DNA of 24,000 nt from Ketobacter alkanivorans (GTDB lineage: Bacteria; Pseudomonadota; Gammaproteobacteria; Pseudomonadales; Ketobacteraceae): NCBI RefSeq assembly GCF_002863865.1, contig NZ_CP022684.1:3143990-3167989 (forward strand), in the 5' to 3' direction. The translations under genes and the position numbers were made by a program. Position 1 is the stretch's first letter, and every line of letters begins with the position of its first letter. The notes beneath the pieces are model-generated. The model saw nothing but the letters and a program-made list of their open reading frames with translations. It did no database searches and was not told the origin of the DNA. Below, piece after piece: positions 1 to 24,000 of the stretch.

Positions 1-1133
1 TGCGCGTGCAGCGCTTTACCCTCAGTGTGCACAGTTTGGCGTTCGGGGTGTATTTGGGGGGGTTGAATCAATATCTCACTGTAGGTGGGCTGGAGTCCGG
101 TGCGGTGGCCTGGTGGCTGATCGTACCGTTGATTGGCGGCCTGTTGATGGGGCTGCGTACGGGGCTGGTGTGGATCGTGATCGCTCTGCTTTCCAGTCTG
201 ATCCTGTTCTACCTTGAAACCCATGGCCACACCTTCCCCAATCTGACTCCGCCAGAGGCCCGCAATGCCCAGCGCGTGGTGCTGGTGGTGGGTGAGTTCC
301 TGGCGGTGCTGATATTGATGACCGCTTACCTGACTCAGATCGAAACCTCGGAACGCAGCCTGGCGCAGAAGAATGCATCGTTGCAGCAACAAGTGGCGCG
401 AGCAGAAAGCGCCGAAGCGGCCGCAGTGGAGGCTTCCGCTGCCAAAACCCGCTTTCTGGCCAACATGACCCACGAGCTGCGCACGCCGCTTAACTCTATT
501 CTGGGGTTCTCCCGCCGGGTTTCGCAGCAGTTGGATGCCCAGCTCAACGAGCGGCAGCGAGACGGCCTGCAACTGGTGGTGGATAACGGCGAGCAAATGT
601 TGCGGCTGGTGTCGGATCTGCTGGAACTGTCGGAGCTTGAAGCAGGCAAATTGCAGCTCGGGCGCAGCGCAATGAATCTGCGTGAAACCGTGAGCCTGTT
701 GTTGCCTGACATGCAGCGTAAGGCCGGTCAGTTTGGCCTTGATGTCGTGGCAGATGCCCCTCTGCCCGAAGTGCTGATCCATGGCGATCTGTCCCGTCTA
801 AAGCGGGCGCTGGAAACCCTGTTGCGACATGCGGTGCAATATTGCCCGCAAGGGGTTATACGTGTCTCAGGACAGATCAGTGGGCAGGCCGTAGGTGAAC
901 AGCGCTGGGTGATGCGGGTGCATTGCGAACAGCTTTGTTTCAACGATGAGCAGCTGCAACGCATATTTGATCGGTACGATCACCTGCACAGTCTGTCCGA
1001 GCGGCCTGATCTGGTATCCGGTTTGGCCATGGTGCTGGCCCGTGAGTTCGTGCGTCGTCATGGGGGCGACTTGCAGGTAAGCCCGCATCCGCAGCGGGGA
1101 ACCCTCTACCAATTAACTCTGCCGTGCGGTTAA
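1..1133 (+). CDS. Membrane HisKA-type sensor histidine-kinase-like protein, N-terminally truncated by the window edge, with a degenerate HATPase_c domain
   Basis: ORF 6..1133 stays open in the same frame back to the window start. It aligns to residues ~75 onward of the next ORF, so about 75 aa are missing. It has hydrophobic N-terminal helices, a coiled-coil linker and the H-box FLANMTHELRTPLNSILGFS. The C-terminal part has kinase-like spacing (LETLLRHAVQY ... RIFDRYDHLHS ... SGLAMVLAREFVRRHGGDL), but the N, G1 and G2 box residues are replaced. Confidence 0.8.
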   Translation, partial: RVQRFTLSVHSLAFGVYLGGLNQYLTVGGLESGAVAWWLIVPLIGGLLMGLRTGLVWIVIALLSSLILFYLETHGHTFPNLTPPEARNAQRVVLVVGEFLAVLILMTAYLTQIETSERSLAQKNASLQQQVARAESAEAAAVEASAAKTRFLANMTHELRTPLNSILGFSRRVSQQLDAQLNERQRDGLQLVVDNGEQMLRLVSDLLELSELEAGKLQLGRSAMNLRETVSLLLPDMQRKAGQFGLDVVADAPLPEVLIHGDLSRLKRALETLLRHAVQYCPQGVIRVSGQISGQAVGEQRWVMRVHCEQLCFNDEQLQRIFDRYDHLHSLSERPDLVSGLAMVLAREFVRRHGGDLQVSPHPQRGTLYQLTLPCG

Positions 1134-1198
1134 GAGCAGGTTTGGCGCACGGTTGAGATTCAGGCACTATACTGATGTGAAAGGGATTTCATTGGAGA

Positions 1199-2539
1199 GT
1201 GTCGTTGGAGGGATTGCTGAATCAGCTGCTGAATTGCGGTTGGGATGAGGATAAAACCGATCCCATCCAGTTGCGGCGTATTCGTACCATCACTGGCACA
1301 TCTCTTCTGCTTATATTGTTGGGTATTCCTTTTCTGCTGCGTGCCTACGAATGGCACATTTCCTTGCGCATGGTTACGGTGCCTGCGGCCATGCTGCTGG
1401 CGATCACATCCATCGCTGTCTTGGGTTGGTTTAAGAATTATCACATCAGTACCCAGTTGGTGGTCTTGGCCATTTATGTGGCCGGTGCCGGTGCTGTATT
1501 AACCAGTGGCGGGGTTGGCACCTCGGCGGTGGGTTGGTGGTTTCTGGTGCCGTTGCTGGCGGGGTTGCTGCGGGGAATGAGCAGCGGCCTGAGCTGGGGT
1601 GCCATAGTGCTGCTTTCTATGTATGCCTGCTACTGGGCCGAAGGCCACGGAATTCCGCTTCCGGATCTGACGCCGCCTGAACACGTTGCCGCCCAGCAGT
1701 TGATGCAAGCCCTGGGTGTGACCTGTGCCACCCTGATATTGATCAGTAATTACCTCGGCCAGATCGGCCACTCCGAGCGGATCCTGGCAGAGCACAATGA
1801 ACGTCTGTCCAGGCAGGTGGAGCGGGCAGAGACTGCCGAACGTGAGCTGACGGTGGCGGTGGAATCGAAAACCCGCTTTCTGGCCAATATGAGCCATGAG
1901 ATGAAAACCCCCCTGAATGCCATTCTGGGGTTTTCCAAACGCCTGCAGCACCGGGCGTCGGATAAGCTCGATGAGCGCGAGCAATTGGCCCTGGGCCAGG
2001 TAGTGAATCACTCAGGTAATATGCTTGCCCTGGTCAACGACCTGCTTGCTCTGGCGCAACTGGATGCAGAGACTCCTCAAGAGCCGAAACGCAGCCCGCT
2101 GGATCTGAAGGAGTTGTTGGTGCGCACAACCCAGGAGCTGGCACCGGTGGCGGGCAGGTTTGATCTGCAATTGATGATGGAGGCTGAGGACAGCCTGGTG
2201 ATCGAGGCCAATGGTGAACAGATCACACAGGCAGTCGGCGCGCTGGTTCGTCATGCGCTCATGTATGCCAAGCAGGGAGTGGTGCGTCTTACACTCGGTG
2301 AGATGACCCAAGGTGCTCTGATTCAGGTGCTGTACCCTGGCGAATTGTCGGAGGCCGGCAAACAGCGTCTGTTCGATCGTTATAATCACCTGCACAGTCA
2401 GAACGGCCGCGACGTGGGGATGTCTGGCCTGGCGCTGGCCCTGGCGCAGGAGCATGTGCTGCTGCACGGTGGGCGCATTGGCGTCAGTTCCGATCCGGCG
2501 GCCAGCAATGTCTGTTTCAATCTTTACCTACCGAGTTGA
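1199..2539 (+). CDS. Membrane HisKA-type sensor histidine-kinase-like protein, paralog of the upstream ORF, with a degenerate HATPase_c domain
   Basis: 446-aa ORF with multiple N-terminal TM helices and the shared motif GHGIPLPDLTPPE (GHGHTFPNLTPPE in the paralog). H-box is FLANMSHEMKTPLNAILGFS. C-terminal region is GALVRHALMYAKQG ... RLFDRYNHLHS ... MSGLALALAQEHVLLHGGRI. The start is uncertain: GGAGA at 1194-1198 abuts the GTG at 1199, so TTG at 1205 is an alternative. Confidence 0.8.
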   Translation: MSLEGLLNQLLNCGWDEDKTDPIQLRRIRTITGTSLLLILLGIPFLLRAYEWHISLRMVTVPAAMLLAITSIAVLGWFKNYHISTQLVVLAIYVAGAGAVLTSGGVGTSAVGWWFLVPLLAGLLRGMSSGLSWGAIVLLSMYACYWAEGHGIPLPDLTPPEHVAAQQLMQALGVTCATLILISNYLGQIGHSERILAEHNERLSRQVERAETAERELTVAVESKTRFLANMSHEMKTPLNAILGFSKRLQHRASDKLDEREQLALGQVVNHSGNMLALVNDLLALAQLDAETPQEPKRSPLDLKELLVRTTQELAPVAGRFDLQLMMEAEDSLVIEANGEQITQAVGALVRHALMYAKQGVVRLTLGEMTQGALIQVLYPGELSEAGKQRLFDRYNHLHSQNGRDVGMSGLALALAQEHVLLHGGRIGVSSDPAASNVCFNLYLPS

Positions 2540-5453: not shown

Positions 5454-5499
5454 TTTGGTACAAACAAGCTAACCCCCAACAGCATTGTTTTGGTACAAT
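5454..5499 (+). promoter_or_regulatory. Candidate gcv promoter/operator: direct repeat TTTGGTACAA (x2) with extended -10 TGgTACAAT
   Basis: TTTGGTACAA occurs at 5454-5463 and 5489-5498, and a third GTACAAT at 5435-5441. TGGTACAAT at 5491-5499 fits an extended -10 about 24 nt upstream of the gcvT ATG. No good -35 was seen. Confidence 0.25.
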
Positions 5500-5522
5500 C
5501 GTGCCAAAACAGGAGACCAAGC

Positions 5523-6605
5523 ATGGCCCAGCGCACAGCTCTATACAACAGCCACCTGCAATCAGGTGCCAAAATGGTGGATTTTGGCGGCTGGGACATG
5601 CCTATCAACTACGGTTCCCAGATCGAAGAGCACAACAGCGTGCGTACCGACGCCGGTATGTTTGATGTCTCTCACATGACCGTAGTGGATGTACAGGGGG
5701 CGGACTGTCGGGCCTATCTGCAGAAATTGCTCGCCAACGACGTGATCAAGCTCAAGACTCCCGGCAAAGCCCTCTACAGCGGCATGCTCAATGAAAAAGG
5801 CGGCGTGATCGACGATCTCATCGTCTACAACATGGAAGGCTGGTACCGGGTAGTAGTGAATTGCGCGACCCGTGAAAAAGATCTGGCCTGGATGGAAAAA
5901 CAGAGCGCAGGATACGATGTCAGCATCACCGAGCGCCCCGACTTCGCCATGATCGCCGTACAGGGCCCCAACGCCATCGCCAAAACCTGCGCCGTAGTGG
6001 GTGAGCCTAAAGCTGCCGTCATCAACAGCCTCAGCATCTTTCAGGGCCTGCCTGCCCAGGACTGGTTTATTGCCCGCACCGGCTACACCGGCGAAGATGG
6101 CCTCGAAATCATGTTGCCCAACGAACAGGCTCCCGGCTTTTGGCAGCAACTGATCGAAGGCGGCGTGGCTCCCTGCGGATTGGGCGCGCGCGATACCCTG
6201 CGCTTGGAAGCCGGTATGAATCTGTACGGTTCCGACATGGATGAAACCGTATCCCCACTGGCCGCCGGTATGGGCTGGACCATCTCCTGGGGCCCAGAGG
6301 AGCGCGACTTCATCGGCCGATCCTCATTGCAACAGCAAAAAGTAGACGGCGTGGACTTCAAACAGGTGGGCCTGGTGCTGGAAACCCGTGGCGTGCTCCG
6401 CGGTCACCAGAAAGTCATCGTAGAAAATGTAGGCGAGGGCGAAATTACCAGTGGTACATTTTCCCCGACCTTAGGCTATTCTATTGCTCTGGCGCGGGTT
6501 CCCGCCGCCACCGGCGATGTCGCCCAAGTGGAAATTCGAGGCAAGCTGCACGACGTCAAAGTCGTCAAAGCCCCCTTCGTCCGCAACGGCAAACAGGTTT
6601 TTTAG
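5523..6605 (+). CDS. gcvT: Glycine cleavage system aminomethyltransferase (T protein)
   Basis: [32 protein letters not shown]... is a typical GcvT N-terminus. ATG 5523 is preceded by AGGAGA (5511-5516). The track start at TTG 5490 is probably too long. Confidence 0.95.
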
Positions 6606-6655
6606 TTCAAATTTTTAACTCTTTTTTAAACCTTTATCAGTTCTGAGGAATGATC

Positions 6656-7042
6656 ATGAGCGAAATACCAACCGAATTGCGTTACCTGTCGTCACACGAA
6701 TGGGTTCGGGTAGAAGACGGCGTTGCCACCATCGGCATCACAGCTCACGCCCAAGAAGCCATGGGCGATCTGGTGTTTGTGGAAACCCCCGAAGTCGGCA
6801 CCACCCTGGCCGCGGGTGACGAAGCCGGTGTCGTTGAATCCGTAAAAGCAGCCTCCGACATCTACACCCCGGTGTCTGGTGAAGTGGTGGAAATCAACCC
6901 GCTATTGGAAGATGCCCCTGAAACCGTCAACTCCGATCCCTATGGCGATGGCTGGATGTTCAAAATTGAGATCGCCGACGGTGCCGAGCTGGAAAACACC
7001 CTCACCGCCGACGAATATCAGGCACAGATCGAAGACGAATAA
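6656..7042 (+). CDS. gcvH: Glycine cleavage system H protein (lipoyl carrier)
   Basis: [17 protein letters not shown]... with the lipoyl-lysine motif [14 protein letters not shown] 6656 lies 7 nt after GAGGA. ATG 6650 is the alternative start. Confidence 0.95.
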
Positions 7043-7070
7043 GTCGGTTGTAAAAACCGTCGCCGTAAAC

Positions 7071-7097
7071 AGCCCGATTCTTGCCAGTCGGGCTTTT
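7071..7097 (+). terminator. Weak intrinsic terminator/attenuator hairpin between gcvH and gcvPA
   Basis: AGCCCGA (7071-7077) pairs with TCGGGCT (7088-7094) around a 10-nt loop, followed by TTT. The stem and T-tract are short, so this may only modulate the H:P ratio or stabilise the mRNA. Confidence 0.35.
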
Positions 7098-7119
7098 GCA
7101 TTTATATCAGGACCCCAAC

Positions 7120-8499
7120 ATGCCCTACATTCCCCACACCGACGATGACGTAAAACGCATGCTCGACACCATCGGTGCCGACAGCATTGATGATCTGTTT
7201 GATGAAATCCCCAAAGACATCATCGCCCAGCCGCTGCAACACGTTCCAGCCGGAAAATCCGAGATGGAAACCACCCGCATCATGAGCGATCGTGCCGCCC
7301 ACGACAGCGGCAACCTGTGTTTTATCGGCGCGGGAGCCTACGAGCATCACATCCCGGCCGCCGTGTGGGAAATCGCCGGGCGCGGGGAATTCCTCACGGC
7401 CTACACACCCTATCAGGCCGAGGCCAGTCAGGGCACCTTGCAGGTCATCTACGAATTCCAATCCATGATCGCCCACTTAAATGGCATGGACGTCTCCAAC
7501 GCCTCCTTGTACGACGGCGGCTCCGGTCTGGCCGAGGCCGTGCTGATGGCCGTGCGCGCCAACCGCAAATCCAAATCCAAAAAAGCACTGGTGCTGTCCA
7601 GCGTTAACCCGCTCTACCGTCAGGCCACCACCAACATCGTCGAAAACCAGGGCCTGGAATTAGTAGAAGTGCCTTATTGCAGCGCGCAGGGCACCACCCC
7701 GGTGGATGCACTCAAGCACTTCGAAGGGCAAGACTTCGCCGCCCTCATCATCCAGCAGCCCAACTTTTTCGGCTCACTGGAAGACGTAGACGCACTAACC
7801 GACTGGGCACACGCCCACGGCATGCTGGTCATCGCCTCCGTCAACCCCACCTCACTGGCCATCCTCACCCCGCCCGGTGAATGGGGCGAAACTGGCGCCG
7901 ACATCGCCACCGGTGAAGGTCAGCCCCTGGGCGTGCCCTTGTCCTCCGGCGGCCCCTATTTCGGATTCATTACCTGCAAACAACAGCACGTGCGCCAGAT
8001 GCCTGGCCGCATCATCGGCCGCACCGTAGACATGGAAGGCCGCCCCGGTTTTGCCCTCACCCTGCAAGCCCGCGAGCAACACATTCGCCGCTCCAAAGCC
8101 ACCTCCAACATCTGTACCAACCAAGGCCTGGCCATGACCGCCGCCACCGTGTACATGAGCTTGCTGGGGGCAGATGGCTTAGAGCAAGTGGCCATTGCCA
8201 GCCACAACAACACCCAATCATTGTTAGAAAAACTCACAGCCATCGACGGTGTAGAGAAAGTCTTCAGCGCCGCCACCTTCCATGAAGTCGTCATCAGCCT
8301 GCCATTGAAAGCCACCACAGCGCTGAAAAAAATGGCCAAGCGAGGCATTCAGGGCGGGCTGGATTTGGGCGAGTACTACCCCGAACTCAGCAACTGCATA
8401 TTGTTATGTGCCACTGAAACCAAAACCCAAGCGGACCTTGATCGCTATGCCACCGTGCTGGCTGAAGTATTGGCCGACACCACAGAAGGAGCGCAGTAA
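7120..8499 (+). CDS. gcvPA: Glycine dehydrogenase (decarboxylating) subunit 1 (P protein alpha)
   Basis: [31 protein letters not shown]... is typical of the split P-protein N-terminal subunit. ATG 7120 is preferred over the track start at 7081, which lies inside the hairpin. Confidence 0.93.
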
Positions 8500-9956
8500 T
8501 GCTTATTTTTGAAAAAAGCCAAAGCGGACGCCGCGCCACCTCGCAGTCCCCCAAAGCACAACAACTTAAAGGCACCATCCCCGAAGGTTTGCTGCGCAAG
8601 CAAAAACCCTTGATGCCCGAAGTAGGCGAGATGCAAGTCGTGCGACACTACACCAACCTGTCGCGCAAAAACTTCAGCATCGACACCCAGTTCTACCCGC
8701 TGGGTAGCTGCACCATGAAATACAATCCACGGGGCGCACATCGTGCTGCCATGCTGCCAGGCTTTCTTGGCCGCCACCCCCTGGCACCGGAACAACATAG
8801 CCAAGGCTACCTGGCTTGCCTGTACGACCTGCAAGAAGTACTGAAAGACGTCACCGGCATGAAAGGCGTATCCCTCACCCCCATGGCCGGTGCCCAGGGT
8901 GAATTCGCCGGTGTCGCCATGATCCGCGCCTACCACGAAGCCCGCAACGACCACGAACGTACCGAAATCCTCATCCCCGAAGCGGCCCACGGCACCAACC
9001 CGGCCACCGCCGTTATGTGTGGCTACAAAGTGCGTGAAATACCCGTTAACGCCGACGGCGACGTTGACGTTGATGCCTTAAAAGCCGCCGTCGGCCCTCA
9101 CACCGCCGGACTGATGATGACCAACCCATCAACCTGTGGCGTGTTTGAACGAAAAATAAAAGAAATCGCCAAAACCGTTCACGAAGCAGGCGGGCTGCTC
9201 TATTACGATGGTGCCAACCTCAACGCCATCCTCGGCAAAGTGCGCCCCGGCGACATGGGCTTTGACGTGCTGCACATGAACCTGCATAAAACCTTCGCCA
9301 CGCCACACGGCGGTGGCGGCCCCGGCGCAGGCCCGGTTGGAGTAGGCGAGCGCCTGCTGCCCTACCTGCCCACGCCCATCGTTGGCAAAGAACACGTCAA
9401 TGGCGCCGACCACTATCGCTGGCTTACCGAAAAAGACATCCCCGGCACCATCGGCCGCCTGTCTACCTACATGGGCAACGCCGGTGTACTGCTGCGCGCC
9501 TACTTCTACGCCAGCGTACTGGGTAAAGAAGGCATGCACCGCGTCGGCGAATTCAGCACATTAAACGCCAACTACATGATGAAAAAAGCGGAGCAGGCCG
9601 GGTTCCAATTGGCCTACCCCAATCGTCGTGCCACCCACGAATTCATCATCACCTTGAGCAAGCAAGCGAAAGAGCTGCACGTGAGCGCCATGGACTTCGC
9701 CAAACGCATGCTCGACTACGGCTACCACGCACCCACCACCTATTTCCCATTACTGGTGCCCGAGTGCTGGCTGATCGAACCCACCGAAACCGAATCCCCG
9801 GATGAGTTGGACGGCTTCATCGAAGCCATGGTTAAAATCCAGAAAGAAGCCGAAGAAACACCAGACCTGGTAAAAGGCGCGCCCTATACCCAACCTGTGA
9901 GAAGGTTGGATGACGTGAAGGCGGCAAGGGAATTGGATTTGGTGTGGGGGAAATAA
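8499..9956 (+). CDS. gcvPB: Glycine dehydrogenase (decarboxylating) subunit 2 (P protein beta, PLP-binding)
   Basis: ATG 8499 overlaps the gcvPA TAA stop (TAATG), consistent with translational coupling. The PLP-lysine context is [18 protein letters not shown]. Confidence 0.93.
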
Positions 9957-11769: not shown

Positions 11770-12342
11770 TTAGAACCGCAGATTAAAGCCAACGCTCAGC
11801 AGGCTGACATCTTGCTCGATAATGGTGTATTCCGCTTCCAGTTGAGCAATGTTGCCCATGTTGACCCCAACGCCTCCGCCAACGGACAGGCCAGTGTCTG
11901 ATTCGCCGAAATCGTTTCCAGAATAAGATGAGTTAACAGTCACGTCTTCTTTGAGCAGGCCTGCTCGTACTTTGAAAAATACGGTGCCCTCGGAGCGATA
12001 GGCAAAATACAGTGCGGTGGTTTCTATTTCGGCTGAGCCATAATAGATATTTTGGCCGCCGGAAAAGCTGATTGAGCCAGAACTGTTGCGTTCAAACTCT
12101 ATGGCAGGGCCTTTGCCAAAATTGTATCCGAGTAAAAAGCCGCCACCAGTCGGGTCGCTGGCATTTTCAATATCCACTTGAAAACTACCGCCCTTAACCC
12201 CAACGTAAACACCTTGATCTTGCGCGTAGACAGAACCACACGCAGCCATAGCAATGGCAGATGCCAAAAATTTCGAATCTTTCTGTGAGGGAATGTAACG
12301 AACAGGGTCAGGTGCAAGCACCTTCCAAAAACACCAGTTCAA
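11770..12342 (-). CDS. Small outer-membrane beta-barrel protein (OmpA-like/OMP_b-brl type)
   Basis: Signal-peptide-like KFLASAIAMAACGSVYA followed by QDQG. It shows alternating amphipathic beta-strand patterning with Gly/aromatic residues, and a C-terminal SVGFNLRF ending in Phe, typical of BAM substrates. The start is ambiguous: TTG 12342, GTG 12321 (overlaps the upstream gene by 14 nt), TTG 12267 or ATG 12249. Confidence 0.7.
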   Translation of the reverse strand: MNWCFWKVLAPDPVRYIPSQKDSKFLASAIAMAACGSVYAQDQGVYVGVKGGSFQVDIENASDPTGGGFLLGYNFGKGPAIEFERNSSGSISFSGGQNIYYGSAEIETTALYFAYRSEGTVFFKVRAGLLKEDVTVNSSYSGNDFGESDTGLSVGGGVGVNMGNIAQLEAEYTIIEQDVSLLSVGFNLRF

Positions 12343-12709
12343 ACCGACCTACGATCAAGCGATCACCGTCTTCAATAACCGCCATCTCCATAGGCTCACC
12401 GTTAACGATGCAGCCTTCGCTGTCTGGGTGGGTGGTAATCATCCACTGATCTTCACTGTGCTCTATGCATAGGTGATACGCTAACAGGCCTGGATCTCGA
12501 ATATAAAAGTCAACGCCACTGGCGGAGCCCAGGCTCCAGTGATTCTGATCTTTATGGGGTTTCAGCACCATCTCCAAGCCCCGCAGGGGTGCCGATAAGA
12601 TGATGAAGCGTGCATAGGGGCAAGGTTGGCGTGATTCCCGTTGAAAATGACGATGCAGCGGAAAGGGGGTGATGGTGTGCAATATACGGTTGTGTGCAGC
12701 CGATCCCAT
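12308..12709 (-). CDS. Divergent FHA-like domain protein
   Basis: ATG 12709 lies 6 nt after a strong AGGAGG. The C-terminal ~75 aa (WSLGSASGVDFYIRDPGLLAYHLCIEHSEDQWMITTHPDSEGCIVNGEPMEMAVIEDGDRLIVGRFELVF) follows the FHA pattern (G-x, xxxH, S-x-G..NG, GD..xxG). The canonical GR and SRxH phosphothreonine-contact residues are replaced by GS and LAYH. Confidence 0.6.
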   Translation of the reverse strand: MGSAAHNRILHTITPFPLHRHFQRESRQPCPYARFIILSAPLRGLEMVLKPHKDQNHWSLGSASGVDFYIRDPGLLAYHLCIEHSEDQWMITTHPDSEGCIVNGEPMEMAVIEDGDRLIVGRFELVFLEGACT

Positions 12710-14639: not shown

Positions 14640-15074
14640 TTACCAGGCCTTGTAGGGCAGGAATTTTCCGTTCATGGTGATGACAACACGATCACCTTTT
14701 GGGTTCTCTTCCTTTTCCACTTCCATAGAAAAATCGATGGCGCTCATAATGCCGTCACCGAATTTTTCCTGAATCACTTCTTTCAATGTTTCACCATAGA
14801 CGCCTACTATTTCATAGAGTCGGTACACCAGAGGGTCGGTGGGCACTGCTTGATCCCAAACCTTAGTGGGATATTTTTGCAGAGCGGTACAGATGTCGGC
14901 ATCTAAACCCAATAGGTTGCACAAGGATTCTGCGGTTTCTTTAGGCATGCTGTTCATGCCCATGCAGGCGGAGGTGGTCCATACCGGTGACATGCCAACG
15001 GCATTGCCGATTTCTTCCCAGCTTAAGCCTTTGCTTTCTTTGGCGGCGATGATGGTTTTTGCTACTTCACTCAT
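14640..15074 (-). CDS. cynS: Cyanase (cyanate hydratase)
   Basis: MSEVAKTIIAAKESKGLSWEEIGNAVGMSPVWTTSACMGM... and the C-terminal DFSMEVEKEENPKGDRVVITMNGKFLPYKAW are typical CynS. ATG 15074 is preceded by AGGAGA. The track start at 15227 adds an implausible 51-aa leader. Confidence 0.9.
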   Translation of the reverse strand: MSEVAKTIIAAKESKGLSWEEIGNAVGMSPVWTTSACMGMNSMPKETAESLCNLLGLDADICTALQKYPTKVWDQAVPTDPLVYRLYEIVGVYGETLKEVIQEKFGDGIMSAIDFSMEVEKEENPKGDRVVITMNGKFLPYKAW

Positions 15075-15293
15075 GCTGATTCTCCTGCGGGTCTTTATCG
15101 GTTTAAAGAGGGTTCGGTTCCCCTTTTTGGGCGTTGTGTCAGGTGCAAAGCATCTTAATGGTGCGTCTATGACGGATAAAAAATCGCAGCTGCACCGAAA
15201 GCGATTTGATAACCAGATAGAAAGCACTGTCTGTGCCAGGTTTCAGAAGGCGTGGTTTTCAGTTGAGGAAATGGAGGGAAAGGCAGGGCGAGT

Positions 15294-17553: not shown

Positions 17554-17871
17554 TCAGGCCTTGTTGTGTGCGCTGGCGTATTTAAGCAGCTCGTCGGCGA
17601 CTCGCTCCCGTATTGCGTTTTGATCATTTGAATCCAGGCCGTATTTTTGCGCCAGAATCTCAAAGTCTTCACTTTTTAACGAAACCGTCAGGCGAGGGCG
17701 AACCGGTTTTTTGTTGTAAGGCAAGCCCAGGATTTTGCGGATCTGGTCAGGTGGATTCAGGTTGCTGTCCAGTGCTGCTTGTTTGATGGCGCGCTGGGCT
17801 TCTGCCGATACGTCAAATGCAACCTGCACCGCTTTGATAGCCTGTTTTTCTTTTTGCCAACGTTCATTCAT
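17554..17871 (-). CDS. Small hypothetical protein, possibly a tandem ribbon-helix-helix DNA-binding protein; last gene of the PspA operon
   Basis: Two segments fit a strand-helix-loop-helix pattern: VQVAFDVSAEAQRAIKQAALDSNLNPPDQIRKILGL and RLTVSLKSEDFEILAQKYGLDSNDQNAIRERVADELLKYA. The start is ATG 17871 (MNERWQ...) or GTG 17904, and neither has a strong SD. It lies 88 nt downstream of the PspA stop. Confidence 0.5.
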   Translation of the reverse strand: MNERWQKEKQAIKAVQVAFDVSAEAQRAIKQAALDSNLNPPDQIRKILGLPYNKKPVRPRLTVSLKSEDFEILAQKYGLDSNDQNAIRERVADELLKYASAHNKA

Positions 17872-17959: not shown

Positions 17960-18652
17960 TTACTGTTTTCCTGCTTTTATACGCGCTAAAATGTCTGCCG
18001 CTGATGCGGATTCACCTTTGATGCCCGCACTTTCCAGTTTGCTGTCCAGATCATTGCCCGACATCTCTTTCTCCAGCAGCTCGCCTGCTTCCATTTGATC
18101 CTGCTTCATTTCCTGACGGGCTTTGATGCGCTCCAGTGATTCCCGCGCAGAGTTTAACGTAGAGTTGTTGGATGCTACGTTTTCTACTACTTGCTCGGTG
18201 GCCTTTTGCACGCTTTCTGTGGTGCGCACAATGGACAGTTCCCGTTCGTGGTCGGCAATTAGCTTCTCGGCCTTTTTAATATGGGCTTTGAGTTGCTCGA
18301 CCTGGCCGGTTAAGCGCGCCACAATGGCATCTTGTTCGGCTTTATTGTTTTCCAGGGTGGCGATCTTGCCTGCTACTTCCAGTGCCAGTGCTTCATCATT
18401 CTGATCCAGAGCTTTGCTGGCATAGGTTTCATGATTGCGAATTTCTTCCACGAAGCTACTTACTTTGCGCTCAGCCTGCATCTTGCGAGCCATGACCTCT
18501 GTAAGGTTGTGCTTGGCTTGCCCGATGCTGGCTTTAGCGTCGACGATTTCCTGCTCGAAAATACGAACACCATTTGAGTCAACAATGGCATCACCCATTT
18601 CCCTTACGCCACCGCGCAGTGCGGTCCAGATTTTATTTAATACGCTGCTCAT
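17960..18652 (-). CDS. PspA/IM30-family (ESCRT-III-like) protein, YjfJ-like
   Basis: MSSVLNKIWTALRGGVREMGDAIVDSNGVRIFEQEIVDAKASIGQAKHNLTEVMARKMQAERK... is a long coiled coil typical of PspA_IM30. GGAGA lies 6 nt before the ATG. It starts 38 nt after the upstream YjfI-like gene. Confidence 0.88.
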   Translation of the reverse strand: MSSVLNKIWTALRGGVREMGDAIVDSNGVRIFEQEIVDAKASIGQAKHNLTEVMARKMQAERKVSSFVEEIRNHETYASKALDQNDEALALEVAGKIATLENNKAEQDAIVARLTGQVEQLKAHIKKAEKLIADHERELSIVRTTESVQKATEQVVENVASNNSTLNSARESLERIKARQEMKQDQMEAGELLEKEMSGNDLDSKLESAGIKGESASAADILARIKAGKQ

Positions 18653-18690: not shown

Positions 18691-19098
18691 CTACACAAGG
18701 TAATTTTCGATGGCTTCCAGTGCGTCGTAAGCGTTGGAGGCCAGGGTGATCAATTCTTTGCAGACTTCGTTAAAGCTGCTGCTGGTGGCCATGGCTCCAA
18801 ACACAACGTAGTAATCTTCTACGATCGCAAAGGAACTCAAGGGCATTGCTACATTCAATTCAAGCATGGTTTTATTGAGTTCGGCGATGCGCTTGGGCTG
18901 AATTTCGGTTTGCTTGCACAGATACGTAATGCACAGTATTTGGGTGTCGGTGATGGTAACGAATATCGGCATGGCATCCAGCTCCGATACGATTACCTGC
19001 AGCACCTCCTGCTCGCCGTGAATGGGTAAACAATCGAAGGTGTGCCCTTCGTAATTCACTTGTCCCAGTTGATAGGTGAGTTCCTGAATTTGGGTCAT
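18691..19098 (-). CDS. YjfI/DUF2170-like protein (secretion-chaperone-like fold), first gene of the PspA operon
   Basis: Motifs are PIFVTITDTQILCITYL ... MPLSSFAIVEDYYVVFGAMATSSSFNEVCKELITLASNAYDALEAIENYL. Its size and its position directly upstream of a PspA-family gene match the E. coli yjfI-yjfJ arrangement (from memory). ATG 19098 has AAGGAGA 9 nt upstream. The track start at 19122 lies inside an operator palindrome. Confidence 0.65.
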   Translation of the reverse strand: MTQIQELTYQLGQVNYEGHTFDCLPIHGEQEVLQVIVSELDAMPIFVTITDTQILCITYLCKQTEIQPKRIAELNKTMLELNVAMPLSSFAIVEDYYVVFGAMATSSSFNEVCKELITLASNAYDALEAIENYLV

Positions 19099-19117
19099 CG
19101 GCTGTCGTCTCCTTTTT

Positions 19118-19170
19118 GACATATTATGTCGATAAGGTTAAGGTTAGACCTCTATGACATAACATGTCAA
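19118..19170 (-). promoter_or_regulatory. Leftward promoter of the yjfI-like/PspA operon with two palindromic operators
   Basis: Palindromes are GACATATTATGTC (19118-19130) and GACATAACATGTC (19156-19168). Read on the minus strand: TTGACA (19170-19165) as -35, an 18-nt spacer, TAACCT (19146-19141) as -10, then the second palindrome just upstream of the SD. Confidence 0.55.
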
Positions 19171-19194
19171 GTGTTTCTGTTTAAGGGCCTAAAA

Positions 19195-19235
19195 GCTTGC
19201 TATTGTTCGGTCTCTCTATAGCAAGCAAGTATAGA
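19195..19235. repeat. Overlapping inverted repeats at the centre of the divergent intergenic region
   Basis: GCTTGCTAT (19195-19203) pairs with ATAGCAAGC (19218-19226) across a 14-nt spacer. TCTATA (19215-19220) pairs with TATAGA (19230-19235). Confidence 0.4.
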
Positions 19236-19255
19236 AAGGTATAACAATACAAATA

Positions 19256-19297
19256 TTGACATAATATGTCGAAAAGTCTAACTTGACATATTATGTC
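19256..19297 (+). promoter_or_regulatory. Rightward promoter of the NfeD/flotillin operon with two palindromic operators
   Basis: TTGACA (19256-19261) as -35 is embedded in the palindrome GACATAATATGTC (19258-19270). After a 17-nt spacer comes TAACTT (19279-19284) as -10. The palindrome GACATATTATGTC (19285-19297) lies immediately downstream, and the GGGGAG SD follows at 19305. Confidence 0.55.
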
Positions 19298-19314
19298 TTC
19301 TGTTGGGGAGTAAC

Positions 19315-19965
19315 ATGGAAGCGTTCTTTGCTAATATTTTTCACTATCCTACTGTTTTCTTTACGGTTTTGTTGCTGGTGTTGGCGGTATACTGGTTTTT
19401 CGCCATCCTCGGAATGATCGATATTGATGTGCTGGATCTGGACATGGATGTTGATGCGGATGTGGATGTTGATCTGGAAGGGTTAACTGGTTTGGCGGGG
19501 CTGTTGGTAACCTTGGGGCTGACCGGCGTGCCTGTGACGGTGGTCGTTACCTTGTTGTCGCTGTTGGCTTGGTTGGTCAGCTACTTTGTGGTGCATTTGT
19601 TCTTTTTTTGGGAGCCTGGCTCCCTGATGGGGTATTTGGTAGGTACGGCGGTGGTGCCGTTGGCTATCGCGGTATCGATACCGGTTACCGCGCAATTGAT
19701 CAAACCTTTGAAGCCTTTGTTTAAAAAAGCATACACGCCACCACCGGAGAAAGTACTGCTGGGGCGTACTTGCAACGTGCGTTCAACCCGCGTAGACGAG
19801 GCATTCGGCGAGGCGGCTGTGGATCTGGATGGTGCCAGTCTGATTCTGCGGATTCGCGCCAAGGCTGATGCCGGGCTCAAGCGGGGTGATGCTGTGGTGT
19901 TGATCGAACATCGGCCCGAGGACAATACCTATTGGGTTGTTCCGGAGCATGAGTTTAAAAAATAA
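19315..19965 (+). CDS. NfeD-like / YqiJ-family membrane protein with a C-terminal OB fold
   Basis: ATG 19315 lies 4 nt after GGGGAG; the track start is TTG 19303. It has several TM helices, an acidic loop DIDVLDLDMDVDADVDVDLE, and an NfeD-type C-terminal beta domain (LLGRTCNVRSTRVDEAFGEAAVDLDGASLILRIRAKADAGLKRGDAVVLIEH). It sits directly upstream of a flotillin gene, as in yqiJ-yqiK. Confidence 0.8.
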   Translation: MEAFFANIFHYPTVFFTVLLLVLAVYWFFAILGMIDIDVLDLDMDVDADVDVDLEGLTGLAGLLVTLGLTGVPVTVVVTLLSLLAWLVSYFVVHLFFFWEPGSLMGYLVGTAVVPLAIAVSIPVTAQLIKPLKPLFKKAYTPPPEKVLLGRTCNVRSTRVDEAFGEAAVDLDGASLILRIRAKADAGLKRGDAVVLIEHRPEDNTYWVVPEHEFKK

Positions 19966-20025: not shown

Positions 20026-22113
20026 ATGGATCTATCAATCATCATGCCTGTTCTAACGGTGGTGGGCTTTATTCTGCTGGTTTTGGTGGGGCTGTTATCC
20101 CTATTCAAGGCATTCTATATCAAGGTAGATCAGGGCAAGGCGCTGATTGTAAACGACATGTCATCTACGCCTAAGGTGTATTTTACAGGTGCGATGGTTT
20201 TACCGGTCATTCACCGCCGGGAGATCATGAAGATATCGGTGATCACATTAGAGATTGATCGTCGTGGCAAAGATGGCTTGATCTGTAAAGATAACCTGCG
20301 AGCGGATATCAATGTAGCATTCTATCTGCGCGTGAATGAAACCGCTCAGGATGTGCTGAAAGTTGCGAAAGCGGTAGGGGTTGAGCGAGCCTCCAGCAAA
20401 GATGCTGTTAATGAGCTATTCAATGCCAAATTCTCAGAGGCCCTGAAAACCGTGGGCAAGAAGATGGATTTTCTGGAACTGTTTGAAAACAGAATTCAGT
20501 TCCGTGATCGCATTATAGAAGTCATCGGTGAAGATCTTAACGGCTACGTATTGGAAGACGTGGCAATTGATTATCTTGAGCAGACTCCGAAATCCGCACT
20601 GGATCCTTACAATATCCTCGACTCCGAAGGTATTCGTCGGATTACCGAAATCACCGCCACCCAGAATGTTGAAACCAATCGTCTGGAGCGTGATGAAGAA
20701 CTTGAGATCAAGCGCAAAAATGTGTCCACCAGAGAGGCCATGCTGGAACTGGAGCGCCAACAGTCCGATGCCGAAGCCAAGCAGCAGCGCGAAGTAGAAA
20801 GCATCCGCGCCCGCGAACAGGCTGAAACACTCAAAGTTAAAGAAGAAGAGCGTCAGAAAGCGGAATCGGCGCGTATTTCTGCGGAGGAATCCATTCAAAT
20901 AGCAGAAGAAAACAAATGCCGCCAGGTAGAAATCGCGGGTAAGAATCGCGAGCGTGCAGTGGCTATCGAGCACGAGAAAGTTGAAAAAGCACGTCAGCTG
21001 GAAGTGGTGAATCGTGAACGTGAAGTTGAACTGCAAACCATTGAGAAAGAAAAAGCGCTGGAAGAAGAACGTAAGATAATCGCCAATACCATCAGTGAAC
21101 GTATTGCGGTTGAAAAGAAAGTGGCGGAAGAGGAAGAACGCATTAAAGACGTGCGCACTATCTCTGAGGCAGAGCGTTCCAAGCAGGTGAAGGTTTTGGA
21201 TGCGGAGGCAGATGCTCAAGAAGATCTGGTGAAGCATGTTAAGAAAGCTGAGGCCGAAGAATTGATGGCCACGCATCGCGCTAAAGAGATCAATGTCATT
21301 GCTCAGGCGGAGCTGGAAGCGGCTGCCAAGCAGGCTGAGGCCCAGATCAAGCGCGCTGAAGGCACTCAGGCCGAAGAAGCGGCTTCTGGATTGGCTGCGG
21401 CCAGAGTGCAGGAAGCCAAGGCGGTGGCATTGGAGAAAGAAGGTATTGCCAAGGCTAATGCTGATCAGGCGCAAGGCATTGCACGTGCCCGTGTGATCGA
21501 AGAGCAGGCTGCGGCCAACGAGAAGCAAGGCTTGGCTGATGCTCATGTGCTGGAAGAAAAACTGGCTGCGAAAGCGCGCGGTGAGAAGGAAATCGGCATG
21601 ACCGAAGTGAAGGTTATGGAAGGCAAGTTAACTGCCCAGGCCACCGGTGATGAAGCCATCGGTCGCGCTGCCGCAATCGCTGAGCGTGAGAAAGGTTTGG
21701 CAGCAGCAGAGATTATTCGTGAGAAAGCCCGTGCAGAAGCAGAAGGCCTGACCGATAAGTTCGATGCGATGAACAACATGAGCCCGGAAGCTCGTGAGTT
21801 TGAAGAGCTGCGTATGCGTCTGGAGCTGGCCTTCGAGGAAGTCATGGCAACAATTGCGGCCAATAAAGATATCGCTAAAGAGCAAGCGGATGTGCTGTCT
21901 GCAGCGTTGTCTAAAGCCAAGATCGAGATTGTTGGTGGCGAAGGGGATTACTTCAATAGCTTTGCCAAGGCGCTGTCGGTAGGTAATGCGATTAACGCGG
22001 TGTCTGGTAAGAGCCCTGTAGTACAGCAGGCGTTAAGTAAGCTGATGAGTCTGGGGGGCGGAGAGCAACCCGTTGCAACTGCACCGGATGTGGCAGTTGA
22101 TAAAGAAGCGTAA
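20026..22113 (+). CDS. Flotillin-family SPFH/Band-7 protein (YqiK-like) with a very long coiled coil
   Basis: It has an N-terminal TM helix (IIMPVLTVVGFILLVLVGLLSLF) and an SPFH domain (YIKVDQGKALIV ... LICKDNLRADINVAFYLRV ... LEDVAIDYLEQTP). An E/A/K/R-rich coiled coil of several hundred residues follows, with flotillin-like EA repeats. Confidence 0.9.
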   Translation: MDLSIIMPVLTVVGFILLVLVGLLSLFKAFYIKVDQGKALIVNDMSSTPKVYFTGAMVLPVIHRREIMKISVITLEIDRRGKDGLICKDNLRADINVAFYLRVNETAQDVLKVAKAVGVERASSKDAVNELFNAKFSEALKTVGKKMDFLELFENRIQFRDRIIEVIGEDLNGYVLEDVAIDYLEQTPKSALDPYNILDSEGIRRITEITATQNVETNRLERDEELEIKRKNVSTREAMLELERQQSDAEAKQQREVESIRAREQAETLKVKEEERQKAESARISAEESIQIAEENKCRQVEIAGKNRERAVAIEHEKVEKARQLEVVNREREVELQTIEKEKALEEERKIIANTISERIAVEKKVAEEEERIKDVRTISEAERSKQVKVLDAEADAQEDLVKHVKKAEAEELMATHRAKEINVIAQAELEAAAKQAEAQIKRAEGTQAEEAASGLAAARVQEAKAVALEKEGIAKANADQAQGIARARVIEEQAAANEKQGLADAHVLEEKLAAKARGEKEIGMTEVKVMEGKLTAQATGDEAIGRAAAIAEREKGLAAAEIIREKARAEAEGLTDKFDAMNNMSPEAREFEELRMRLELAFEEVMATIAANKDIAKEQADVLSAALSKAKIEIVGGEGDYFNSFAKALSVGNAINAVSGKSPVVQQALSKLMSLGGGEQPVATAPDVAVDKEA

Positions 22114-22170
22114 TGCATAGGAAACATTGGGGGTGAACGCCCCCTAAACAGGAATGTTGAGGGTCAGTAA

Positions 22171-24000
22171 GTGACAGTGAGTCAAACAGCATCTGAACAG
22201 CAGGTCGAGTCGGCGGTTTCTCAGGGCTCCGCTTATGAAGTCATCCGTAACCGATTGATTGATCAGGGTAGTCAGTTAGAGGCACTGGCTACACAGATAA
22301 ACCAACAGCGCATGGACGAATTCGGCTCCACCGAGCTCAATGTGATCGGTCGTACACGGGTACGTACCGAAAACAACTGTGTAGCGCGGGATATTGTGCG
22401 TGCCGGAGACTATTTGCTGTTTGGCTACAACGTTTTTATTGGCCTGAAACAGACCACCTCGGTGGAGGATGTGTTTTCGCTTTATCGGCTGGTGGAAGGA
22501 GACGGGTCGCTGGATATGGAGCCAGTGGCGACAGAGTCGACTTTCTTAGGTGATGCCCGGTTTGTGTCGGACTTTAACGAGCTTTACACCTATTACAAAA
22601 ACACGTTTCTAACTCAGTTGCGAGTAAAGGATGGACGCCTGCTGGCAGCGTTTCAGATCGGTGAACGTGATACCGATATCCGGGTGTTTCGTTGGTCGGT
22701 ATCGGCCGATGGTAAAACAATAGAGTACATTGATAACCGTGGTGAGCGCGATATTGAGTTGCCGCCGGCCTGGGATTTCGAATGGCAAGAGGTGAGCAGG
22801 GAGCTGATGGTGGATGGCCGTCATCCTCATATCAATGTTTTGGACACGATTTTTGTAGACACCATTCACGGCGATCTGACCATTAAAGTAGAGAACAACA
22901 CCCGCAGCGGTCAGGGTATCTATTCTGAGCCGGTGGAAGATGTAAACCAATCCCTGGACGATGCTGATTTTTATTTTGCGGAAATAGGGCAGTTGATACT
23001 GCTGCGCATCAAACCCTATCAAGAAGAAGCGTGGCGGCATTTGGTATTTAATCGCCTGAATAACAGCGTGGTGCGCATTGATGCTATCGGTGACAGCTGT
23101 CAGCAGTTGCCAGAGGATCATGGCATTGTTTTTCCGGGCGGTTACTATTTGCAAACTGGCGACTATAAGACCTTTGATGAGCCTCTCTATGGGCTGCGCT
23201 TTCGTCGGGTAATTCGCTCTCCCAATGGGGAAGATGTGCTCTATGTGTATTACCAGGCTGAGCAGGGTGTAGTCGCCCTTTATCCTTACAACATGATTGA
23301 AAAATCATTGCGTAATCCAGTTTATGGCCACGGCTATGGGCTTTTTGAGGATGGTCGCATGGTGGTGTTCTCTGCTGATGATGAGCCGACCCGCGTGCAC
23401 CCTATGCAAATCTGGCAATCTCCGTTCTTTAGTGATGTGCATGCCAGTCAGGCCCAGCAGTCGCAAAGTTTCTTTGGTCGTATTGGTAATGCCGAGCTGG
23501 TGCGTGGTATATCCGATTTGTTCAGTGTTGTGCAGCTGATTCGCAACCCTGAGGCAGCATCTGCCCATTACCTTGAATTGTGCAAATACGCGTCGCGTTT
23601 GTTCGACCAGTATCACTGGCTATCGGACAAAAGCCTTACGGATGTTCACGGCGTATTAAAGTCCATCATCGAATCCGGCGAGTTGGTGCTGGATGAGTAT
23701 GAAAAAGTTCAGAGTATTCGAAAAAGCTCGCAGCAGGCATTGTTGCAGGCCGAGCAGTCTGTTGCTGATCTGATCAAACAGTTGCAACCGGATGGCTGGA
23801 CGGTGCCGCAGCCGTATATGACCGCTATGATGGATATTCGAAAATTGCGCGGGCATTTGCTCACGATTTTAGAGTATCGTTATATCGATCAGGTACGTAT
23901 TCATGAGCTGGATGGCAAGCTCATGAACAAGCAAGGGTTTATCGCCGAGCGCACCATTGAATTCCTGGCCCAGGATGATTCGCTTGATCCATTCTATGAT
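22171..24000 (+). CDS. Large uncharacterised protein, 5' part only (at least 610 aa, runs off the window): coiled coil, then a beta-rich propeller-like region, then a helical region
   Basis: This ORF is not in the supplied track. I translated it by hand. GTG 22171 follows an in-frame TAA (22168-22170) and a GAGGG SD (22159-22163). There are 610 sense codons with no stop through base 24000. Translation begins VTVSQTASEQQVESAVSQGSAYEVIRNRLIDQGSQLEALATQINQQRMDEFG... It starts 57 nt after the flotillin stop on the same strand. All track ORFs in 22609-23856 are antisense to it. Confidence 0.75.
   Translation, partial: MTVSQTASEQQVESAVSQGSAYEVIRNRLIDQGSQLEALATQINQQRMDEFGSTELNVIGRTRVRTENNCVARDIVRAGDYLLFGYNVFIGLKQTTSVEDVFSLYRLVEGDGSLDMEPVATESTFLGDARFVSDFNELYTYYKNTFLTQLRVKDGRLLAAFQIGERDTDIRVFRWSVSADGKTIEYIDNRGERDIELPPAWDFEWQEVSRELMVDGRHPHINVLDTIFVDTIHGDLTIKVENNTRSGQGIYSEPVEDVNQSLDDADFYFAEIGQLILLRIKPYQEEAWRHLVFNRLNNSVVRIDAIGDSCQQLPEDHGIVFPGGYYLQTGDYKTFDEPLYGLRFRRVIRSPNGEDVLYVYYQAEQGVVALYPYNMIEKSLRNPVYGHGYGLFEDGRMVVFSADDEPTRVHPMQIWQSPFFSDVHASQAQQSQSFFGRIGNAELVRGISDLFSVVQLIRNPEAASAHYLELCKYASRLFDQYHWLSDKSLTDVHGVLKSIIESGELVLDEYEKVQSIRKSSQQALLQAEQSVADLIKQLQPDGWTVPQPYMTAMMDIRKLRGHLLTILEYRYIDQVRIHELDGKLMNKQGFIAERTIEFLAQDDSLDPFYD

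Follow-up and report, generated by a model that had tools for sequence, protein, structure and literature searches.

We analyzed a stretch of 24,000 nucleotides of the Ketobacter alkanivorans genome (contig NZ_CP022684.1, positions 3,143,990 to 3,167,989), hereafter called the window, and focused on the intergenic region between two divergent operons. The leftward operon encodes a DUF2170 protein, a PspA/IM30 family protein and a 105-amino-acid protein, and the rightward operon encodes a YqiJ-like membrane protein, a flotillin-like protein and probably an AAA+ ATPase. Four copies of a 13-bp palindrome occupy this region. They are probably the operators of a negatively autoregulated ribbon-helix-helix (RHH) repressor, namely the 105-amino-acid protein with whose gene the leftward operon ends, and they would be embedded in two sigma-70 promoters.

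Four palindromes in two divergent promoters

Sequence reading and a pattern search agreed on four exact copies of GACATANNATGTC, starting at positions 19118, 19156, 19258 and 19285, as an earlier note on this DNA had reported. That note had written the motif as GACATA(nn)ATGTC; the palindrome stands, and its core is better given as GACAT-N3-ATGTC (5-3-5) with an A/T-rich centre. No fifth copy was detected in the 24-kb window with up to one mismatch allowed, and sites with two mismatches elsewhere in the window occurred at chance level. Dinucleotide-preserving shuffles gave a mean of 0.33 matches (maximum 3) and none of the 100 shuffles reached the observed count, in agreement with the previous claim that four copies are improbable by chance. 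As also supposed there, the motif is not that of a well-known regulator. A PadR-type site (ATGT-N8-ACAT) was rejected, since the arrangement here is ACAT-N3-ATGT, different in both orientation and spacing, and no PadR gene was present in the window or in the conserved neighbourhoods.

In each direction, the promoter-distal palindrome is fused to a perfect TTGACA, which confirms the first reading. On the minus strand, toward the DUF2170-PspA-RHH operon, the distal operator OL1 (GACATAACATGTC, 19156..19168) overlaps the -35 hexamer TTGACA (19165..19170, read from 19170 to 19165). After an 18-nt spacer comes the -10 hexamer TAACCT (19141..19146), at whose aligned position the two other lineages with this divergent layout, L003 and L010, carry TAGCCT and TAAGAT, respectively. 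The proximal operator OL2 (GACATATTATGTC, 19118..19130), an exact match to the motif, lies at about +5 to +17 of the predicted transcript. On the plus strand, toward the YqiJ-like/flotillin-like/AAA+ operon, the distal operator OR1 (GACATAATATGTC, 19258..19270) overlaps the -35 hexamer TTGACA (19256..19261), an arrangement shared by L003 and L010. The -10 hexamer TAACTT (19279..19284) follows after a 17-nt spacer, and L003 has TAGATT at the same position. The proximal operator OR2 (again GACATATTATGTC, 19285..19297) abuts the -10 and covers the predicted start site, at about -6 to +7.

Some details of the earlier description had to be changed. The proximal palindromes had been placed at about +1 to +20, which does not fit the right-hand copy. 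The TAAC(C/T)T -10 hexamers at 17-18 nt spacing were retained, but the "shared GTCTAAC element" of which they were said to be part is just the -10 region; relatives keep only TAnnnT. The rightward GTCTAAC is present, at 19276-19282 and not at 19275-19281. When we aligned the complete divergent intergenic regions of the window, L003 and L010, the invariant positions were the four palindromes, the TT of the -35 hexamers and part of each -10.

Further sequence features were observed in the same region. A tandem AAGGTT AAGGTT at 19135-19146 corresponds to two TAACCT hexamers on the minus strand. An extra rightward promoter, TTGACA-17-TAAGGT at 19116-19144, could be read by using the TTGACA of the left proximal site; as it is not conserved in L003 or L010, it was rejected as probably incidental. 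Midway between the divergent promoters, an inverted repeat distinct from the GACAT palindromes, GCTTGCTAT-N13-ATAGCAAGC (19196-19227), may be the site for a second factor. As RNA, this repeat gave -11.9 kcal/mol (z = -2.0), and its CTATAGC part is partly kept in two related lineages.

Conservation of the palindrome pair across genomes

Homologs of the small open reading frame (ORF) that encodes the 105-amino-acid protein were found with the same DUF2170-PspA-ORF order and an identical upstream palindrome in Ketobacter, in an unclassified gammaproteobacterial metagenome-assembled genome (MAG) and in Thalassotalea. We scanned 596 Gb of sequence, with one genome per species, for two palindromes 8-38 nt apart. 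At least 120 loci were recovered, so that the pair is present in at least 120 species, compared to 2-5 expected by chance. Among the matches listed, a DUF2170 gene lay no more than 400 nt downstream of the pair in 100 of 120 loci. The pair-bearing taxa among them were Shewanella, Pseudoalteromonas, Colwellia, Thalassotalea, Kangiella, Moritella, Motilimonas, Endozoicomonas, Ketobacteraceae and some Betaproteobacteria (Duganella, Pseudoduganella). Most of the other listed pairs stood before genes of small membrane proteins, before a DUF350/spermine-synthase operon or before PspA alone, or were cut by the edge of the stretch. The membrane- and polyamine-related genes among them belonged to the same taxa. 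Four to five listed matches appeared unrelated, namely a Balneolaceae tandem array and matches in Sphingobium, in a deltaproteobacterium and in a prophage-like region of Oscillospiraceae, and this number is in line with the chance expectation.

On the Balneolaceae MAG contig (L018, 664-1090), the tandem array has a 47/93-bp period and about 9 units of 47 bp, each with a similar AGACATGGCATGTCT palindrome, and it bears no relation to the phage shock protein (PSP) regulon. In the Oscillospiraceae MAG (L067, 2398-2445), a divergent intergenic region of phage-like context contains two GACATAnTATGTC palindromes, next to a gene whose product starts like an XRE-type helix-turn-helix repressor; they are probably an unrelated operator that shares the core sequence by coincidence.

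The palindromes also keep a fixed register to the promoter elements. Both the distal and the proximal palindromes are kept upstream of DUF2170 in 98 non-redundant promoters of other species, and in 96 of them a TT stands before the distal one and completes TTGACA (binomial p ~1e-89). In contrast, the proximal palindrome has a T at -1 in only 28/98, with no significant preference. A TAnnnT hexamer (TAAATT, TATCTT and others) stands 16-18 nt downstream in nearly all of the 98 promoters. Since the TT is confined to the distal site, it belongs to the promoter and gives its direction, and GACA is common to the operator and the -35. The extended 17-bp operator TTGACAT-N3-ATGTCAA was rejected on the same grounds. 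An A at +13 of the proximal sites was enriched (66/98, p = 6e-12), so that the operator may be one base longer on one of its sides.

Taken together, the hexamers, the 16-18 nt spacing and the conservation among orthologs all agree with sigma-70 promoters with overlapping operators. Along with the three-lineage alignment, they give strong comparative support to the dual-operator repression design over two divergent promoters that the earlier note had suggested. Looping between the promoters, which it had also considered, is unnecessary, as in most species a single pair at a single promoter is present.

A putative third target was recognized in other species, the lipoprotein/DUF350/spermine-synthase operon. 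It has a single palindrome, whose GACA lies within a -35-like hexamer, and a TATTAA or TATAGA -10 follows at 17 nt. Pairs were also observed before genes of predicted membrane proteins of about 100-125 amino acids in Motilimonas and Shewanella (L035, L045, L084, L095 and L009) and, in S. electrica, before the gene of a 264-amino-acid protein; these genes are possible extra members of the regulon. Within the genus of the window, Ketobacter sp. MCCC 1A13808 (L001, 5700-5775) has the promoter-proximal palindrome only, its -35 region reads TTGACC with no palindrome, and a GIY-YIG gene stands where the flotillin operon would adjoin. Even within Ketobacter, then, the number of operators and the linkage of the operons are variable.

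The 105-amino-acid protein as candidate repressor

The earlier note had put forward the small ORF at 17554-17871 (minus strand), last gene of the leftward operon, as the first regulator to be considered. It is indeed the best candidate, in view of its perfect co-occurrence with the motif and of its predicted single-chain tandem RHH fold, and no other DNA-binding or regulator gene was found near the palindromes in the window. Among the matches listed, the RHH ORF is encoded in 60 out of 60 loci that were selected by the motif and whose sequence reaches 3.5 kb or more downstream of DUF2170. Conversely, when metagenome loci were selected by PspA, all 43 complete ones encode the ORF and carry two or more palindromes upstream; a shorter PspA-selected locus, L127, has a degenerate palindrome pair. 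As the PspA-alignment search returned only RHH-positive relatives, the negatives were taken from a plasmid collection and from E. coli. No palindrome with up to one mismatch was detected over 10-20 kb in six RHH-less DUF2170-PspA operons from six genera, those of E. coli (yjfIJKLMC), Halomonas, Rhizobium, P. fluorescens (pQBR103), V. alginolyticus and Aureimonas, the five non-E. coli operons being plasmid- or chromid-borne. In 79 plasmid records that contain a YjfJ-type PspA, the RHH ORF was not encoded in any. For the motif-independent sets, Fisher's exact test gave p = 7e-8, a value to be taken as a guide only since related species are not independent samples. In Thalassotalea, the ORF begins one base past the end of the preceding gene, which indicates co-transcription.

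In pQBR103 of P. fluorescens SBW25 (L209, 4226-4261 and 4295-4310), another perfect inverted repeat, CTTTCATGTAAGGT-N8-ACCTTACATGAAAG, lies upstream of the yjfI-like gene of the RHH-less operon, with a third half-site 34 nt further on. This suggests a different regulator of this operon class in other lineages.

The 105-amino-acid ORF is a member of a family that comprises 441 unnamed proteins. Two AlphaFold2 runs, with 24 or 111 sequences, gave strand (E) and helix (H) segments E15-17/H23-35/H40-48 and E63-65/H67-77/H84-104, thus a beta-alpha-alpha arrangement twice, and the larger alignment gave no better model. The only two strands of the model are both bridged according to DSSP and are therefore paired with each other. 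The ten best Foldseek matches of both models were all AvtR or F TraY, which are single-chain tandem RHH proteins (PMC5569661 and PMC12117103, respectively). The most conserved segments of the family are the two predicted strands with their basic N-terminal flanks (KAIKAVQVAFD and KKPxRPRLTVSL), and thus fit DNA-reading elements facing a near-invariant operator.

A related gene has been noticed before. In the passages of Ravi et al. 2024 (mSystems, PMC11237479) that deal with it, a predicted RHH transcription factor is "in some cases" the last gene of CesT/DUF2170-PspA-DUF4178 operons, with the S. oneidensis SO_3765/SO_3766 context. This factor is almost certainly of the same protein family as the window ORF, since its operon position and gene neighbourhood are those of the Shewanella and Thalassotalea loci found here. 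In the window, by contrast, the gene directly follows PspA, and another putative target, the flotillin operon, lies in divergent orientation. The binding site, the regulon, the promoter architecture and the tandem-repeat nature are absent from those passages. In the searchable literature, we came across no account of the operator, of its regulon, of how the promoters are built or of a tandem nature of the protein, and queries with the motif string or with SO_3764 to SO_3767 returned nothing relevant. The mechanism, an autoregulated repressor over -35 and +1, is textbook; the motif and the regulon appear undescribed.

Several results weigh against the assignment of the palindromes to this protein and to sigma-70 promoters. 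The AlphaFold2 model has a pLDDT of only 72-74, and the Foldseek matches were not significant (E 0.36-1.8, probability ≤0.6, TM 0.32-0.48). No Pfam or NCBIfam match to the ORF was obtained at E ≤ 0.01; with E up to 10, only stray matches appeared (NikA-like in 2 of 24 members, RHH_10 in 1 of 24). Neither whole-protein nor half-protein profiles matched a solved RHH protein among the PDB sequences, and the comparison of the two halves by hhalign (probability 21%) gave no significant internal repeat. With regard to co-occurrence, the negative set is small (n = 6) and the association is with the whole operon, from which the RHH protein is not formally separable as opposed to another operon product or an unlinked factor of the same pattern. 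In two Kangiellaceae loci (L039, 1486-1528; L075, 1514-1554), the pair immediately precedes PspA, and neither a DUF2170 nor an RHH gene is present in the 8-kb stretch, which implies regulation in trans or a rearranged operon; in L075, YqiJ-like and flotillin-like genes follow PspA in the same direction. As for the promoters, the -10 hexamers of the window are weak, and a generic scanner called neither promoter because these hexamers match TATAAT at only 3-4 of 6 positions. Finally, the spacing within pairs (27-39 bp start to start, mostly 34-36) has no helical phasing, so cooperative binding is not implied; the spacing follows promoter geometry instead.

Some of these points would suit an unlinked factor with the same phyletic distribution as the owner of the palindromes, the small ORF then being a structural or adaptor part of the PspA system. 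The RHH assignment is statistically weak, co-occurrence alone cannot name the binder, and the pairs far from any RHH gene (L039, L075, L009, L035, L045, L084 and L095) need a trans-acting factor anyway. We nevertheless consider this explanation unlikely. Within the DUF2170-PspA-ORF core, a DNA-binding fold is predicted for the product of the small ORF only, this ORF is present in 103/103 complete motif-bearing operons, and the motif is absent from 6/6 operons that lack it. Moreover, no other regulator gene is conserved in the neighbourhoods, and it is common for an RHH repressor to be encoded at the start or the end of an operon that it controls itself.

If the RHH protein is the binder, it might still act as an activator or as a dual regulator. 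AvtR, its top fold match, activates and represses depending on its concentration (PMC5569661), and the weak -10 hexamers might need activation. The sites themselves make this improbable: a distal operator on a perfect -35 and a proximal one on -10/+1 are in positions typical of steric repression and not of class I/II activation, and the -35 is already optimal in 96 of the 98 promoters.

Hardly credible is a role of the palindromes as RNA (5' untranslated region hairpins acting on stability or translation), or as a dispersed repeat (of the repetitive extragenic palindrome or miniature inverted-repeat transposable element kind) or a recombination site with no regulatory function. Although the proximal copies would be transcribed into the 5' untranslated region, 17-19 nt from the start codons, and the same palindrome recurs in the Balneolaceae array, the distal copies lie upstream of the predicted starts, the hairpin is weak (-3.4 kcal/mol, z = -0.9) with no Rfam match, and the copies are confined to promoters of a few functionally linked operons in several orders. 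A dispersed repeat, which the earlier note had named as a possible outcome, is likewise not what was found, as the copies are locked to promoters and no further one was detected in the window.

Under the preferred reading, the RHH protein would shut off the two divergent sigma-70 promoters in parallel. Bound to the distal operator, it would compete directly with sigma region 4, because this operator shares GACA with the consensus -35 TTGACA. At the proximal operator, which lies between the -10 and about +17, it would keep the open complex from forming or the polymerase from leaving the promoter. Its position as last gene of the leftward operon would make the regulation negative and autogenous. 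The nearly invariant strands KAVQVAF and RLTVSL are predicted to pair within one chain as the DNA-reading ribbon, and the most economical stoichiometry would be two monomers, in two-fold symmetry, per GACAT-N3-ATGTC palindrome. The putative regulon would be a YjfI/YjfJ-type, phage-shock-like membrane maintenance system composed of the DUF2170-PspA-RHH and YqiJ-like/flotillin-like/AAA+ ATPase operons, to which other species would add the lipoprotein/DUF350/spermine-synthase operon and some small membrane proteins.

The protein leaves no room for a ligand-binding domain, and the signal may therefore come through a protein partner. In P. aeruginosa, the DUF2170 protein BacA has been suggested to control its own operon, bacABCDEF, negatively, and a sigma-54 promoter has been proposed for this operon (PMC10948618). 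By analogy with PspA-PspF and ExsC-ExsD, it is conceivable, if doubtful, that the DUF2170 chaperone or the PspA-type protein sequesters and releases the ligand-domain-free tandem RHH repressor under membrane stress. This would be a third logic of phage-shock-type control, based on sigma-70 and RHH and governing PspA, flotillin and polyamine-linked membrane genes in marine Gammaproteobacteria and some Betaproteobacteria.

The proposed design resembles that of CopG (RepA, pMV158), Arc/Mnt (phage P22), omega (pSM19035) and MetJ, with a small RHH autorepressor, a short (pseudo)palindrome over the core promoter and multiple operators. The CopG operator is a 13-bp pseudosymmetric element that overlaps the -35 of its own promoter, and Arc controls divergent promoters. 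In contrast to these repressors, both RHH repeats are here predicted in one chain, so that a half-site need not be symmetric, and the protein is chromosomal and would control several operons of a membrane-stress regulon, not the copy number of a plasmid or the immunity of a phage. Family and profile searches detected no sequence similarity between the 105-amino-acid protein and CopG/Arc-type RHH proteins.

With F TraY and the archaeal virus protein AvtR, the candidate shares the predicted beta-alpha-alpha arrangement twice in about 100 residues, the fold matches being not significant. Both proteins bind DNA as monomers, each imitating an RHH dimer, and form arrays that are direct or inverted (PMC12117103, PMC5569661). 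AvtR is autoregulatory and works in a divergent intergenic region, as proposed here. However, TraY is an accessory factor of the relaxosome, AvtR comes from a virus, and their sites are degenerate repeats, unlike the near-invariant 13-bp palindrome of the window.

The E. coli PspF/sigma-54 system, with PspA as anti-activator, and the bac operon of P. aeruginosa involve the same kinds of genes (PspA/IM30, a DUF2170/CesT-like partner, flotillin, YqiJ and AAA+). Their control differs from that proposed here, where the promoters are of the sigma-70-type TTGACA/TAnnnT and not -24/-12, and where an operator-binding repressor would replace the enhancer-binding activator. The motif is lacking in E. 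coli yjfIJ as in the five other RHH-less operons. Thus, the PSP class of these bacteria would depend on a sigma-70 promoter with a proposed repressor, as opposed to sigma-54/PspF for E. coli psp and the proposed sigma-54 for P. aeruginosa bac.

PspA/IM30 proteins are bacterial members of the ESCRT-III superfamily, and YjfJ-type PspA systems with flotillin, YqiJ and AAA+ partners are widespread. A defined operator, GACAT-N3-ATGTC, and a candidate cognate repressor offer an experimental handle on the function and the inducing signal of the YjfJ-type PspA/flotillin systems. If the proposal is true, loss of the repressor would lead to constitutive expression of the whole system. Operator-reporter fusions could be used to screen for the inducing stress, and genome-wide motif scans could define the regulon in cultivable Shewanella, Pseudoalteromonas and Colwellia.

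Gene content of the two operons and of the window

The start codons in the window agree with independent gene calls on the 114-kb metagenome contig GCA_024449705.1, which is identical in this region. In the leftward operon (minus strand), the DUF2170/YjfI-like gene (18691..19098; Pfam PF09938, E = 1e-37) has its true start at ATG 19098, behind a Shine-Dalgarno sequence GGAGA at 19108-19112; homologs and the independent gene calls both give 135 amino acids. A CesT/Tir-like chaperone fold has been described for such proteins in the literature. It is followed by the gene of the YjfJ-type PspA/IM30 family protein (17960..18652, 230 amino acids; PF04012, E = 7e-40) and by that of the candidate repressor.

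In the rightward operon (plus strand), the first gene (19315..19965), with a Shine-Dalgarno sequence GGGGAG at 19305-19310, encodes a membrane protein of 216 amino acids, as also given by the independent calls. This protein had no Pfam match, and the YqiJ/YuaF-like label comes from its size, position and membrane character and from the literature. The second gene (20026..22113) encodes a flotillin/SPFH-like coiled-coil membrane protein of 695 amino acids with a weak NCBIfam FloT match. It has 69% identity over 122 amino acids to the start of a pQBR103 gene annotated as SPFH domain protein, and a flotillin-like gene is kept beside the same operon in L003, L010 and betaproteobacterial loci. A DUF3686 AAA+ ATPase gene (22171..24000; PF12458, E = 3e-203), which runs off the window, is probably the third gene of this operon; in L003, an ATPase gene of the same family comes next after the flotillin-like gene. 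The genes of the two operons have the composition of class 1 as given in the part of Ravi et al. 2024 (PMC11237479) that treats these operons, namely a CesT/DUF2170-PspA dyad with a band-7/flotillin protein, a YqiJ-like transmembrane protein and a novel AAA+ ATPase.

Elsewhere in the window (6-2539, 5490-9956, 12308-12709 and 14640-15227), we observed a pair of neighbouring histidine-kinase genes without a visible response regulator, a cluster for glycine cleavage (gcvT, gcvH and a split gcvP), a short protein with an FHA domain and a cyanase, all with no link to the palindromes. In the 57-nt gap between the flotillin-like and the DUF3686 ATPase genes, a GC-rich hairpin, GGGGGTGAACGCCCCC, is present at 22129-22144. 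As the plus strand has no T-run, this hairpin may serve in processing or attenuation rather than in termination.

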